The translations under genes and the position numbers were made by a program. The notes beneath the pieces are model-generated. The model had not been told where the DNA came from, did no database searches, and saw nothing but the letters and a program-made list of their open reading frames with translations. From contig CAZTYH010000003.1 in the NCBI GenBank assembly GCA_964617565.1, positions 13,666 through 68,947 of the forward strand: 55,282 bases of DNA, written 5' to 3'. The DNA is from an uncultured Verrucomicrobiota bacterium. GTDB taxonomy: Bacteria > Verrucomicrobiota > Kiritimatiellia > CAIQIC01 > JAGNIJ01. Of the stretch, positions 11,801-15,771 are shown piece after piece. Within the stretch, counting starts at the first letter, position 1. The number at the start of each line of letters is the position of its first letter.

Positions 11801-13928
11801 CCGCAACAGCATAATATGGAATAATAATCCGAAGGAATGGCAGGTTTACAAGCAGTCTGGGGGCAGTGGTCCGGCGGCGATGATTCAAACCTCCTTGTAC
11901 GATCCGAACCCATCATCCTTTTTCGAGAGCAATTGTCCGGCTCATGCCACCTTGTCCGGGGTAATAACCAACGATCCACAGTTTGTGGCAAACAGCTTCC
12001 ACTTGCATCCGAATTCCCCGGCCATCGGCGCGGCGAACACAAATTGGGCGCCCACCATAGATATTCATGGTCAGGCCCGGCCATTTGGAGGTCTGGCAGA
12101 CATGGGCGCGGAGGAATTCGTCGATACAAATGCGAACGGCTTGCCGGACTGGTGGGAGACGCTTCATTACGGTGGACCGACCAATGCGACAGCTTCCGCC
12201 GATGATGATGGCGATAGTCTGACCAATATGGAGGAATATACATGGGGCGCAGATCCGCACAACGGGGATACCGATGACGATGGGCTCTCCGATGGTGATG
12301 AAGTCAGTATTCACAGCACCAACCCGCTGAATCCCGATACGGACGGTGACGGCATTCCCGACGGATGGGAAGCTCAACACGGCCTTGACCCGCTTGATCC
12401 GACAGACGCGAATTTTGACAGCGACAGTGACGGATTGACCGATTACGAAGAGTATCTGCTGGGCACCAATCCAAATCTTTGGGATACGGATGGCGACGGG
12501 ATATCAGACGGCAGCGAGGCGGATCAGGGATATGATCCTTTGGATCCGGGCAGCACCCCCGATGCAGAGTGGTTCATTGTAACCGGGGATCTGCAACAGA
12601 ATATTGTAAAAGAACGTAGCCGCACGATTCAGATTCCTGCCGGACGAGCTTGCCTCCTTGTTATTGGGGTGTACAGCGCAGAATATCCACAATGGACAGG
12701 CCAATCATCTCAGTATAACGATGTCCTTACTTGGAATATCCAGCCTTCGCAGGGGGAGACCGTTATCGGAAGCATCGATGTGAACAGTCGGCACACAGAA
12801 TGGCAACAGGGTACGAACATGCTCGGTTATGCGCCGGTTCATATCGAGCATGAGAGTATCATTGCGGCGCCAAGCAACACACCACTGACACTCGATCTCA
12901 CATTGTCGGCCAAGAATGTTGGGGACAACATTCTGCCCAGCACGGTCATGGTAGGGGTATACATTCTCAAAACGGACATCAAATGGGACGGTATCAATGG
13001 AGAGGCCTCGGCGAGTGGTGCGACAAACACCGTTAGCGCAGGCCATAATATTCGGCTGATTGGTTCTGCTGAACCATCTAGGATCACGTCATCTAATCAC
13101 CAGTGGACGGTAGCCGGCAAGGTGATCAAAGATTACTACATTGACTCGGGTATTTTGCCACAAGAAGGCTATATCATTCCGCTTACCGATACTACAACTC
13201 AGGCAATAAGCTACTACTGGGTTGACGGTAACACGAACGCTGGGGCAGGCAGTGTGTTTTCCGTAACCTACTCATGCGAAATGGCTGGCATTGCGTGCAG
13301 CGCAACAGCTTACTTCGATGTGAAAAGGCCTGTTGCGGAGATTTCGATCACAACCGGATACGCACTACTTAAAAACAGGTGGACTGACAACCATCCTTTA
13401 TTCACATTCGGTGAATACTCTGATGTGGGATCCACGAACCCTCCGGGGATGTTCTTTGCCAATGCTAATTTTTCTGCCCCTTGGGGTTTCGGTGATATAG
13501 AAAACTGCTTTTGGCTGCAGATAGTGGATAGCTGCTACGTCCGCGAAGTGACGGTATCAAACACCTTGGAAGAGGTGACGCGCGGACTTGACGGCGATGT
13601 ACATTATGGCAACTTCAGCGGGTATTCAGCCGAAGATTGTCCTGTCAATGTCCTTGGCGAGAATACGCACTCGCTCTACGAAGAACTGAACGCAACGATG
13701 TACTTGATGTTTGAACCTAATCCGATCGATGCGGGAGCCGCATCAGTGCCGATTCCCCTCCGCAAGATCTCTTGGCGTTGGCAGGGCGTGGTAACGAACA
13801 TCCATCCATACGCACCCAATTGGCAAAACGTCACGAATTGGGCAATTGAAGTCGATGCACCGTGGCAAGGTCCTGAGACGGACACGACGGATCATCCGAC
13901 ATGGACTACTAACAGCATGGGAGGTTGA
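8868..13928 (+). CDS. Giant secreted protein with an N-terminal beta-sandwich, a Pmp-like right-handed beta-helix, two TSP3 acidic repeat blocks and an unrecognised C-terminal module
   Basis: Signal peptide is [25 protein letters not shown]. The beta-helix region ([14 protein letters not shown]...KPGTY) carries repeated NGAGILC, NGAAIYL and MGGGLYS motifs. DxDxDG-rich blocks lie at 10494-10793 and 12123-12555. The last ~460 aa match no family I recognise. Confidence 0.85.
   Translation: [1686 protein letters not shown]
10494..10793 (+). repeat. Thrombospondin type-3-like Ca-binding acidic repeats, block 1
   Basis: Reads [18 protein letters not shown]...[34 protein letters not shown]...[12 protein letters not shown]. 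Confidence 0.75.
12123..12555 (+). repeat. Thrombospondin type-3-like Ca-binding acidic repeats, block 2
   Basis: Reads [18 protein letters not shown]...[13 protein letters not shown]...[12 protein letters not shown]...[12 protein letters not shown]...[13 protein letters not shown]...[12 protein letters not shown]. Confidence 0.75.
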
Positions 13929-13931
13929 GCG

Positions 13932-14492
13932 ATGTCGAAATCAAGAATACAAAAGCCATTAAATGTAATCCTGGCGGGTTTTTTTGGTGTATGCAGCGGG
14001 ATTTCTTTTGCGGCCTCTGGAGAACCAGTGTCGAGTTGTGGCGTCGTCACCAACGGTCTTCAGGTATGTATTTCTCTATCTAGCAGCGAATTTGCCGCGA
14101 TAGAGCCGATCATTGTCGACCTCATTGTCAGCAATAGTTCTGAAAAGGCGTTCATGATCGCTGTCGGACGTCCGGAATGGGTTTGTGATATCGAAGTGAT
14201 GCAAGTAGGTGAGGGGAAGATTGCTCAAACTCGGTTTGGCGTGAATGCTGCGCAGAGCATAAGGCGTGCGAATCCGAAGCCATGGCTGCTAAAGCCTGGA
14301 GAATGCCGGCATGATCCGATTCTCCTGAACCGGTATTTTGACATGAGCGTGGCCGGAATATATCGCGTGTCTATAACGAGACGGCTGAGCATGCCCAGTG
14401 CAAGCCAAGGCGTTATCGCCAACTCAGGAGATGTGGAAATCCGCGTTATAGATGAAGTGCCAGGAGGAAGGTCGGCGTGGGGTGGAGAGTAG
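13932..14492 (+). CDS. Small secreted protein of unknown function, translationally coupled to the giant gene
   Basis: Sec-type signal peptide is MSKSRIQKPLNVILAGFFGVCSGISFAAS. Its GGGAGG Shine-Dalgarno lies within the last codons of the giant gene (atgggaggttga). The gap between the two genes is 3 nt. Confidence 0.7.
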   Translation: MSKSRIQKPLNVILAGFFGVCSGISFAASGEPVSSCGVVTNGLQVCISLSSSEFAAIEPIIVDLIVSNSSEKAFMIAVGRPEWVCDIEVMQVGEGKIAQTRFGVNAAQSIRRANPKPWLLKPGECRHDPILLNRYFDMSVAGIYRVSITRRLSMPSASQGVIANSGDVEIRVIDEVPGGRSAWGGE

Positions 14493-15112: not shown

Positions 15113-15147
15113 GCGTAGTTGTTTATTCGCGTGAGGTTGCGGTAGAG

Positions 15148-15771
15148 ATGATACTGATTATCTTCGGGATTCCGTTTTTATTGTGTCTGCTCGTGAGCAT
15201 GACGGCGGCGCGGGCCGGCGTTTGGTGTCGGGCCCTTTTCAAGTTCTATGCCGGTATGTTGGGCGCAGCCCTCCTTGTCGAACGATTCTGGACACTGCTT
15301 CTCGGAGATCGCTTCGAAAAACCGGCGTATCTTTTTGTGATGTTGTTATTTGTCTGCGGGACGCTGATTTTCGTGGACGCAAGAAGGCTTGCGCAGGAGC
15401 CTGTGGATGTCGAAACAAAGAGAAGCCACCTGATCCTTTCCGCATTATCCGTTGAGGGACTGATCTTTGCGCTCTTCTCAGCTTTATTGCTTTTCGGTGG
15501 TACGTGGGCAAGGCTTTGCTGGGAAGCAGGCGCACAAAGGTCTGGCCAATATATCCGAGGCGGGGGGACAGTGATATTTTTTCACGGCTTCATAGCTGTG
15601 CTGCTTCCCCTGGCAGTACTCGTTTCTGCTGTTGGATGTTTCCTGAAGCGAAAACATCTGTTTCGAGAACAGGTGAAAGCGTTAGTCAATCCGTCTCCAA
15701 AGAAGCTTCATCCGGCTTTGGCGCTGTTGATCCTTATTCTGTTCTTCTGCCTGGTCGAATTTCTTCTGTGA
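15148..15771 (+). CDS. Polytopic membrane protein of unknown function
   Basis: 207 aa with about six hydrophobic segments. I recognise no family motifs. Confidence 0.6.
   Translation: MILIIFGIPFLLCLLVSMTAARAGVWCRALFKFYAGMLGAALLVERFWTLLLGDRFEKPAYLFVMLLFVCGTLIFVDARRLAQEPVDVETKRSHLILSALSVEGLIFALFSALLLFGGTWARLCWEAGAQRSGQYIRGGGTVIFFHGFIAVLLPLAVLVSAVGCFLKRKHLFREQVKALVNPSPKKLHPALALLILILFFCLVEFLL

Follow-up and report, generated by a model that had tools for sequence, protein, structure and literature searches.

A giant secreted protein with an exchangeable C-terminus and an exported partner: a candidate polymorphic effector/immunity-type locus in an uncultured Verrucomicrobiota bacterium

Introduction

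How might a protein that is exported by the Sec pathway reach the periplasm of a neighboring cell when no injection machinery is visible around its gene? This question is raised by a locus in a stretch of 55,282 nucleotides (nt) from an uncultured Verrucomicrobiota bacterium (assembly GCA_964617565.1, contig CAZTYH010000003.1, positions 13,666 to 68,947 of the forward strand), hereafter called the window. A gene for a giant secreted protein is followed there immediately by a gene for a small exported protein, which we refer to as the partner, and then by a decayed second copy of the partner gene. The interbacterial weapons of Proteobacteria, Bacteroidota, and Firmicutes have been mapped in detail, and those of Verrucomicrobiota and Lentisphaerota only to a very small extent; the latter two groups are abundant in lakes, soils, and the gut. 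Here, we compare this locus with related loci in genomic and metagenomic data and suggest that it is probably a polymorphic effector/immunity-type system acting in the periplasm. A constant adaptor with swappable tails, a conserved pair of C-terminal module and partner, and the presence of orphan or decayed copies together form the genetic signature of polymorphic toxin/immunity systems, and the exported nature of the partners points to the periplasm as the site of action.

A Constant Domain Followed by Exchangeable C-Termini

The features on which the argument depends are as follows.

8868 to 13928, + strand: giant secreted protein, 1686 amino acids (aa) from its ATG, with a Sec-type signal peptide at the start (map of open reading frames (ORFs), translation)
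12525 to 12959, + strand: jelly-roll 'pre-cargo' domain of 145 aa (aa 1220-1364), with the motifs DVNSRH ... LPSTVMVGV (sequence comparison)
12945 to 12985, + strand: junction at which the cargo switches, LPSTVMVGV / YILKTDIKW (alignment of relatives)
12972 to 13925, + strand: C-terminal cargo module of 318 aa, an Ig-like lobe plus a larger beta-sandwich (profile search, AlphaFold2 model)
13919 to 13934, + strand: coupling signals GGGAGG, stop TGA, GCG, and ATG, both genes being in the same frame (read from the sequence)
13932 to 14492, + strand: 186-aa secreted Ig-like partner, candidate immunity protein (signal peptide, homologs, profile)
14590 to 15112, + strand: decayed second partner gene, with its own GGAGG and ATG, a frameshift, and an in-frame TAA

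A first-pass annotation of the window, made from the sequence alone, had described about 460 codons without recognizable family at the end of the giant gene. Residues 1225-1686 indeed match nothing in Pfam, NCBIfam, or PHROGs, but they comprise two separate domains, each of which has many relatives. A homolog search with these residues returned two kinds of match that separated the domains: 15 proteins of about 370-740 aa matched the first third only (approximately 50% identity), and a few matched the last two thirds. The first of the two, the 145-aa domain, is approximately 50% identical in the proteins P0002-P0016, and scanning it against species-representative genomes revealed 18 loci with 43-59% identity to the window. 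These were labeled as Verrucomicrobiota (15 loci, from Akkermansiaceae, Luteolibacter, and others), a Lentisphaeraceae metagenome-assembled genome (MAG), an unclassified MAG, and a MAG labeled Pelagibacteraceae. The closest is the Lentisphaeraceae locus L025 (59% identity), whose protein is also giant (>2875 aa). The Pelagibacteraceae-labeled MAG (L033, contig JAGYIF010000002.1, 386 kb) lies outside the Planctomycetes-Verrucomicrobia-Chlamydiae (PVC) group and carries the domain at 34% identity, which could reflect either horizontal transfer or an error of binning or labeling.

When the 18 genome loci were combined with four further ones, the 145-aa domain was found to be followed by 14 unrelated tail clusters in 22 loci. 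Over 100 pairs drawn from different tail clusters, identity averages 52% across the 60 aa that precede the junction and drops to 20% across the next 100 aa. The variable part thus starts at approximately aa 1365-1369, not at residue ~1225 as was originally proposed. The tails in relatives include Amidase_3, an N-acetylmuramoyl-L-alanine (peptidoglycan) amidase; a reprolysin-like peptidase and other HExxH metallopeptidases; a lipase-like alpha/beta-hydrolase with a GHSLG motif; a protein-arginine deiminase (PAD) in L027; and DUF6973-like and DUF6531/Rhs tails, P0016 being the sole relative with DUF6531. Domains of these kinds also occur in effectors that act in the periplasm. In L027, an N-terminal domain similar to that of the window (29.5% identity) is joined to the 145-aa domain and the deiminase tail, which indicates that the scaffold type of the window occurs with other cargo as well.

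The gene immediately downstream changes along with the C-terminal domain. Its family follows the tail cluster, as in L010/L016/L022, L017/L018, L019/L030, and L023/L032, each of which has a family of its own. With few exceptions, the products of these downstream genes have a signal peptide, a lipobox, or a membrane anchor at the C-terminus, which supports the earlier proposal that the partner acts outside the cytoplasm. Two features by which polymorphic toxins are recognized are therefore present, namely a constant region joined to many unrelated C-termini at a defined junction and a downstream gene that varies with the C-terminus; with at least 14 C-termini on one domain, a sharp junction, and co-varying downstream genes, the layout suggested by the first-pass annotation is supported. 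It had also asked whether the C-terminus and the small gene swap together in related genomes while the scaffold is conserved. The 145-aa domain is constant and the tails and downstream genes co-vary across the 22 loci, but the closest relative of the window, described below, keeps the cargo on a different scaffold.

In 11 verrucomicrobial loci, the toxin-like gene is directly preceded by a gene for a conserved 263-aa secreted proline-rich protein; in L009 and L010 (7213-8004 in both), this upstream gene overlaps the start of the toxin-like gene by 4 nt. This protein, which has no counterpart in the window, may be a helper for export or delivery. In terms of surroundings, the cassette in L009 (1-17875) is flanked by BREX genes (PglZ, PglY/BrxC) on one side and by a type IIG restriction-modification gene on the other, and that in L010 (1-12360) adjoins PrimPol/PolA and HTH_17 genes; these are defense-island or mobile-element neighborhoods.

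A Conserved Pair of Module and Partner

The window's own tail, the 318-aa module, belongs to a large family. A profile built from four sequences and searched against 1.84 billion cluster representatives matched 3343 of them at E<=1e-3 and 246 at E<=1e-30. A further homolog search with a 23-sequence profile returned only 7 proteins. The module is almost always located at the extreme C-terminus, in proteins of 220-1686 aa, and the N-terminal parts to which it is joined are very diverse (Ig-like repeats, PKD, Fn3, LamG, transglutaminase-like, and TSP3). Together with a downstream partner ORF, it was also observed on a human-gut metagenome contig (L054, 19-657), and the family is therefore not confined to soil and freshwater samples.

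The partner gene is closely coupled to the giant gene. The giant gene ends with TGA at 13926-13928, within atgggaggttga, and GGGAGG at 13919-13924 lies in its last codons, 7 nt ahead of the partner's ATG at 13932. The junction reads ATG GGA GGT TGA GCG ATG, so that the partner starts 3 nt past the stop, and the coordinates of this Shine-Dalgarno arrangement agree with those first reported. TGA GCG alone separates the two in-frame genes, and read-through of the stop would fuse both proteins. The 186-aa product has the signal peptide attributed to it, ending AAS/GEP, and no match in Pfam, NCBIfam, or PHROGs.

Metagenomes were scanned for the module with 6 sequences, which yielded 27 additional loci. 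Of these, 25 have a readable ORF downstream, and in 23 of them (approximately 18 of which are non-redundant) the next gene, starting 7-60 nt past the module stop, encodes a partner homolog. The homologs, 170-280 aa in length, share the motif pattern of the 186-aa protein and likewise have a signal peptide. A partner profile constructed from 13 genes of other loci, with the window sequence excluded, gave E 2e-19 for the 186-aa protein and E 4e-18 for the decayed copy, and it also detected the partners of L008, of L013 (as two tandem repeats), and of L035. It matched none of 27 control genes located downstream of other tail types (all E >0.2). In addition, the divergent 'RDEDV' subtype of the module (P0002, P0169) is paired with its own partner subtype, and the pairwise identities of module and partner are correlated (r 0.73, permutation p 2e-4), with the partner evolving faster than the module (mean identity 23% vs 37%). 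The module and partner of the window thus form a two-gene unit that is conserved across distant relatives.

These data refute the explanation that the arrangement is coincidental, that is, that the C-terminus is a lineage-specific extension followed by unrelated small genes. Such a view might have been taken from the fact that none of the three parts is matched by Pfam, NCBIfam, or PHROGs, but it is hardly conceivable for a module family of this size with a recurrent downstream partner that is absent from the controls, in a locus that is identical in six assemblies.

The closest relative of the window pair is found in L007/L008, where the module is 70% and the partner 59% identical to those of the window. 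The start of the module is conserved between them as (I/V)LK(T/V)DIKWDG; L008 reads VLKVDIKWDG, without the preceding 145-aa domain. The protein P0001 from this lineage had appeared to be a stand-alone 406-aa module protein, but this is a gene-call artifact of a 100-N scaffold gap (L007 2578-2677; L008 1764-1863). The real gene is long. Its product has an N-terminus similar to that of the window (28% identity), followed by TSP3 and LamG-like parts, and a short domain of another kind leads into the module.

Decayed and Additional Partner Genes

The second small-gene copy with two lesions that had been noticed downstream of the partner is indeed a member of the partner family (25% identity to the first copy, E 7e-9). 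One lesion is a frameshift located within or close to the T6 run at 14603-14608, and the other is an in-frame stop codon, TAA, at 14759-14761. Six independent metagenome assemblies have the identical sequence for the surrounding low-GC island, together with both lesions, and read errors are therefore ruled out as their source.

Second, divergent partner genes that are intact are present in L048, L052, and L059. Neither these nor the pseudo-copy of the window are closer to their neighbors than to partners elsewhere; the best relative of the decayed copy is L052_d2 in another locus (28.6%, compared with 25% to its neighbor). This indicates that second copies are old, distinct lineages and not recent duplicates, and a decayed member of the partner family that is no recent duplicate fits an orphan immunity gene. 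Only an orphan partner was found in the window, with no orphan fragment of the module.

Structure and Possible Functions of the Module

The AlphaFold2 model of the module is all-beta and confident (predicted local distance difference test (pLDDT) 88.4, predicted template-modeling score (pTM) 0.88). Profile and structure searches, which had been recommended for the C-terminus, bore out the absence of a known family and otherwise returned only generic, weak neighbors: a profile search of the module against PDB sequences gave no match, no peptidase or hydrolase fold was recognized, and the only neighbors that Foldseek returned from the PDB and from viral models were tandem-Ig or arrestin-like and generic (template-modeling score (TM) ~0.2). 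Among 23 diverse module members, Q183, D207, Y212, and D222 are invariant polar residues, the last three of which are located in a loop region (GLD..YPY....DSP).

The 145-aa domain is predicted to be a beta-sandwich plus one helix (pLDDT 82, pTM 0.77). It has no Pfam match, and a profile search of PDB sequences gave nothing useful. Its best structural neighbors, all at TM ~0.4, comprise the gpJ receptor-binding tips of phage lambda, as well as Bdellovibrio Bd1399, tail-needle knobs, a CBM61 module, and the C-terminal domains of subtilases and collagenases. These neighbors suggest a binding role for the modeled domain but prove nothing.

The main rival to an effector/immunity-type system, for which the uninformative fold of the module leaves room, is a non-antagonistic surface protein with a dedicated helper or inhibitor. 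In one form of it, the module would be a binding or tip domain of a surface adhesin or enzyme used for attachment or substrate capture, and the 186-aa protein a dedicated periplasmic chaperone or a factor that keeps it inactive in transit, with no role in killing competitors. The two beta-sandwiches of the module resemble many adhesin or receptor-binding domains, its N-terminal companions (Ig-like repeats, PKD, Fn3, LamG, TSP3, and beta-helix) are typical of surface proteins, the 145-aa domain is weakly similar to phage receptor-binding tips and carbohydrate-binding modules, and tail-fiber genes with co-varying downstream assembly chaperones are known to show the same genetic pattern. However, the same slot holds lytic enzymes with co-varying exported partners in relatives, it is immunity genes and not chaperones that typically occur with divergent extra copies and a decayed orphan, and no usher or assembly machinery is encoded nearby. 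We consider this form of the rival unlikely, although it is the likeliest of the alternatives.

The second form of the rival concerns the fold of the partner, for which a single Ig-like beta-sandwich of approximately 140 aa is the most fitting description. The Pfam matches of partner homologs, to Big_14, Arrestin_C, BsuPI, and A2M, all remain below threshold. BsuPI (PF12690) is matched by 4 of 23 homologs (best E 9e-4; a bit score is reported for one match only, 19.3 where the cut-off is 22.9) and A2M by one of 23; the Pfam gathering threshold for BsuPI is not reached, and the window's own partner gives no match to it. The module could be a secreted hydrolase, such as an unconventional all-beta peptidase, accompanied by its own BsuPI/A2M-like Ig-fold inhibitor in a mobile pair that serves housekeeping or nutrition instead of antagonism. 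The BsuPI and A2M matches and the invariant polar cluster in the module loops would agree with this, but the Pfam matches of the partner, none of which reaches its curated cut-off, include generic Ig-like families as well, and the module has no peptidase or hydrolase fold. This possibility appears quite improbable as a separate explanation, and it overlaps mechanistically with an effector/immunity-type system, in that both involve an enzyme with a neutralizing partner and differ in purpose alone.

One further observation relates to the partner family. Its sole invariant residue is an Asn (Asn68 of the 186-aa protein, window 14133-14141), which belongs to an N-x-S/T sequence in nearly all of the aligned homologs and could be either a structural turn or a glycosylation sequon.

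Scaffold and Genomic Setting

The giant protein is composed, in order, of a signal peptide, an N-terminal domain, thrombospondin type 3 (TSP3) repeats, a beta-helix, a choice-of-anchor Q domain, further TSP3 repeats, the jelly-roll, and the cargo module. Its gene is also called in six other assemblies. The parts preceding the jelly-roll are listed below.

8883 to 9854, + strand: N-terminal domain, aa 6-329, common to other TSP3 giants (tblastn)
10485 to 10802, + strand: first TSP3 block, about aa 540-645, calcium-binding repeats (Pfam TSP3_bac)
10806 to 12119, + strand: right-handed beta-helix, aa 647-1040, and choice-of-anchor Q, aa 1043-1084 (Pfam, NCBIfam)
12123 to 12557, + strand: second TSP3 block, aa 1086-1230 (Pfam TSP3_bac, best at aa 1157-1178; NCBIfam CglD/MtsD-type repeats)

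By tblastn, the N-terminal domain is 28% identical to the long ORFs of L007/L008 and 29.5% to L027. TSP3_bac (PF18884) matches the scaffold only, in 7 stretches and above its threshold (109.5 bits), and an NCBIfam match of Amuc_1099 type at aa 598-645 is limited to the repeat region. The last repeat had been placed near 12555, which agrees well with the end of the Pfam block near aa 1230 (approximately nt 12557). In the beta-helix part of the proposed beta-helix/TSP3 scaffold, the Beta_helix, DUF1565, and Pel9A-like matches of Pfam to aa 647-1040 all fall slightly under their cut-offs; choice_anch_Q of NCBIfam is above its own (35.3 bits, cut-off 25).

The locus is situated in a compositional island, which extends to a gene for a membrane protein.

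8100 to 15780, no strand: compositional island of 7.7 kb, GC content 0.519 against 0.57-0.60 around it
15148 to 15771, + strand: polytopic membrane protein of 207 aa, with five or six hydrophobic segments of transmembrane length

Genes within the island have a GC content of 0.49-0.53 and a third-position GC content (GC3) of 0.45-0.61, and flanking genes have values of 0.56-0.62 and 0.64-0.76, respectively. The C-terminal region had been singled out as AT-rich on the basis of hand counts of G+C (29 and 26 at 13081-13200, 42 at 2401-2460), all of which are exact on recount. The contrast with the rest of the giant gene does not hold: GC content is 0.507 for residues 1225-1686, 0.506 for the beta-helix part, 0.526 for the whole scaffold, 0.506 for the partner gene, and 0.508 for the membrane gene. 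Along the region, it is the island as a whole that stands out, uniformly low from 8.1 to 15.8 kb with no step at 12540, and its minimum (0.46-0.47 at 11100-12000) lies in the beta-helix region of the giant gene and not in the C-terminus. This uniformity rules out composition as evidence for a separately acquired C-terminus; the 7.7-kb island was probably acquired as a single unit. No flanking repeats, tRNA, or integrase were found around it, and neither tRNA genes nor Rfam families at the gathering threshold were detected anywhere in the window (1-55282). A scan for promoters and terminators performed no better than on shuffled sequence.

With regard to the membrane protein, both the ORF and its hydrophobic segments are as previously described, but it has no family match in Pfam, NCBIfam, or PHROGs and no homolog at any related locus, so that nothing beyond the common low GC content ties it to the system and it was set aside as a component. 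At the other end of the island, an Arg/Gly-rich ORF of 259 aa at 8092-8871 overlaps both the gene for an M50-like membrane protein and the start of the giant gene. It was considered as a homolog of the conserved 263-aa upstream gene and rejected: it has no similarity to that gene, is uncalled in other assemblies, and is probably spurious.

Interpretation

Several observations weigh against an effector/immunity-type system in the periplasm. Many of the proteins that bear the module resemble ordinary Ig-repeat surface proteins, and the confident model of the module, two beta-sandwiches, shows no recognizable enzymatic fold or predictable toxic activity. No known toxin, pre-toxin, or immunity family matches (Pfam, NCBIfam, and PDB sequence profiles), and no dedicated delivery apparatus is encoded nearby. 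The correlation between the divergence of module and partner may be explained by shared inheritance instead of binding. Finally, it is the scaffold that differs in the L007/L008 lineage, in which cargo and partner are stable.

On balance, we still favor an effector/immunity-type system, which may operate as follows. The giant protein would be exported by the Sec pathway and displayed or released on its calcium-binding TSP3/beta-helix scaffold. As comparison with its relatives shows, the 145-aa jelly-roll serves as the constant adaptor ahead of an exchangeable C-terminal cargo; its position and weak fold resemblance leave room for the speculation that it binds a receptor on the target cell or is a processing site. 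The most likely target of the window's module would be some component of a competitor's cell envelope. The coupled 186-aa protein would be exported to the producer's periplasm, where it could bind and neutralize the module and thereby shield the producer and its kin. The decayed second copy would represent an orphan immunity gene against a different variant of the module that is no longer maintained.

A broader proposal can be put forward only tentatively. PVC-group bacteria (Verrucomicrobiota and Lentisphaerota) may possess an undescribed class of polymorphic antibacterial toxins of their own, which would be exported by Sec on TSP3 scaffolds, contain the 145-aa jelly-roll as a new pre-toxin or receptor-binding domain, and be assisted by the 263-aa upstream helper in verrucomicrobial members. 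Its cargo in the window would stand for a new all-beta toxin superfamily of very large size, with >3000 sequence clusters from bacteria of soil, freshwater, and the gut, and the Ig-fold immunity proteins paired with it in the periplasm would likewise form a new family.

The adaptor domain and its defined junction could be used for mining many new pairs of cargo and immunity protein. The widespread pair of module and partner is unannotated and now has a confident structural model of the module. Even if it turned out to be an enzyme with an inhibitor or an adhesin with a helper, this would be the first functional hypothesis for thousands of proteins that have no match in Pfam, NCBIfam, or PHROGs.

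Comparison with Known Systems

No curated family or solved structure was matched by the 145-aa domain, the module, or the partner. In the literature searched, whose coverage did not extend to subscription journals, no description of TSP3-linked or verrucomicrobial polymorphic toxins was found, and the 2012 catalog of polymorphic toxins (PMC3482391) mentions neither thrombospondin nor TSP.

Polymorphic toxin systems, such as Rhs/YD, CdiA-CT/CdiI, and MafB/MafI (Zhang et al. 2012, PMC3482391), are the most similar in logic. They share with the locus a constant N-terminal part, a sharp junction motif, many unrelated C-terminal cargos, a cognate gene directly downstream that changes with the cargo, and extra or decayed orphan copies, and the relative P0016 continues into a DUF6531/Rhs region. 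On the other hand, the giant protein has no recognizable toxin, Rhs/YD, or pre-toxin motif, as had been stated at the outset: Pfam and NCBIfam revealed no Rhs/YD core, VENN, PT-HINT, PT-TG, LXG, PAAR, or two-partner-secretion (TPS) features. More specifically, RHS, YD, and DUF6531 of the Rhs/YD toxins are not matched; the TPS, FHA, and VENN/PT domains of contact-dependent inhibition (CDI) are likewise not matched, and no CdiB is recorded among the genes called around the locus; and DUF1020 of MafB/MafI is not matched in Pfam. The constant part of the giant protein consists instead of a Sec signal, TSP3 repeats, and the new jelly-roll, the candidate immunity proteins are exported rather than cytoplasmic, and the orphan found is a partner and not a cargo fragment.

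Effector pairs of type VI secretion systems (T6SS) that act in the periplasm (Tae/Tai amidases, Tle/Tli lipases, and Tge/Tgi) offer a functional parallel, since the cargos of the relatives include a peptidoglycan amidase, a lipase-like hydrolase, and metallopeptidases, and the downstream proteins, with signal peptide, lipobox, or membrane anchor, would be periplasmic. However, neither T6SS apparatus nor PAAR/VgrG/Hcp/MIX/FIX adaptors were found in the giant protein or its downstream genes (Pfam, NCBIfam) or recorded for the genes called around the window locus or the related loci, and the effectors here carry Sec signal peptides of their own.

Modular bacteriocins (colicins and S-type pyocins) have a comparable linear order, with a receptor-binding or translocation part followed by a killing domain, and an adjacent immunity gene that is exchanged with the killing domain as a pair. 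Colicins lack a signal peptide and depend on lysis proteins for their release, and their immunity proteins are mostly cytoplasmic or located in the inner membrane. No sequence or fold similarity connects the bacteriocins to the parts of the window.

Phage tail-fiber tips with their assembly chaperones are similar in that a C-terminal beta-rich tip co-varies with a small downstream gene, and tips of the lambda gpJ and Bdellovibrio Bd1399 type are the best structural neighbors of the 145-aa domain. They differ in that this resemblance reaches a TM of only ~0.4 and that the locus has no phage genes, no PHROG matches, an exported partner, and lytic-enzyme tails in its relatives. BsuPI (PF12690) and other Ig-fold inhibitors resemble the partner in being a single Ig-like sandwich, with weak BsuPI, A2M, and Big_14 matches among its homologs, but all scores remain below curated cut-offs, and BsuPI is intracellular, whereas the partner has a signal peptide. 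Taken together, the logic of the system is of a known kind, and what appears to be new are the families of its scaffold, adaptor, cargo, and immunity proteins.

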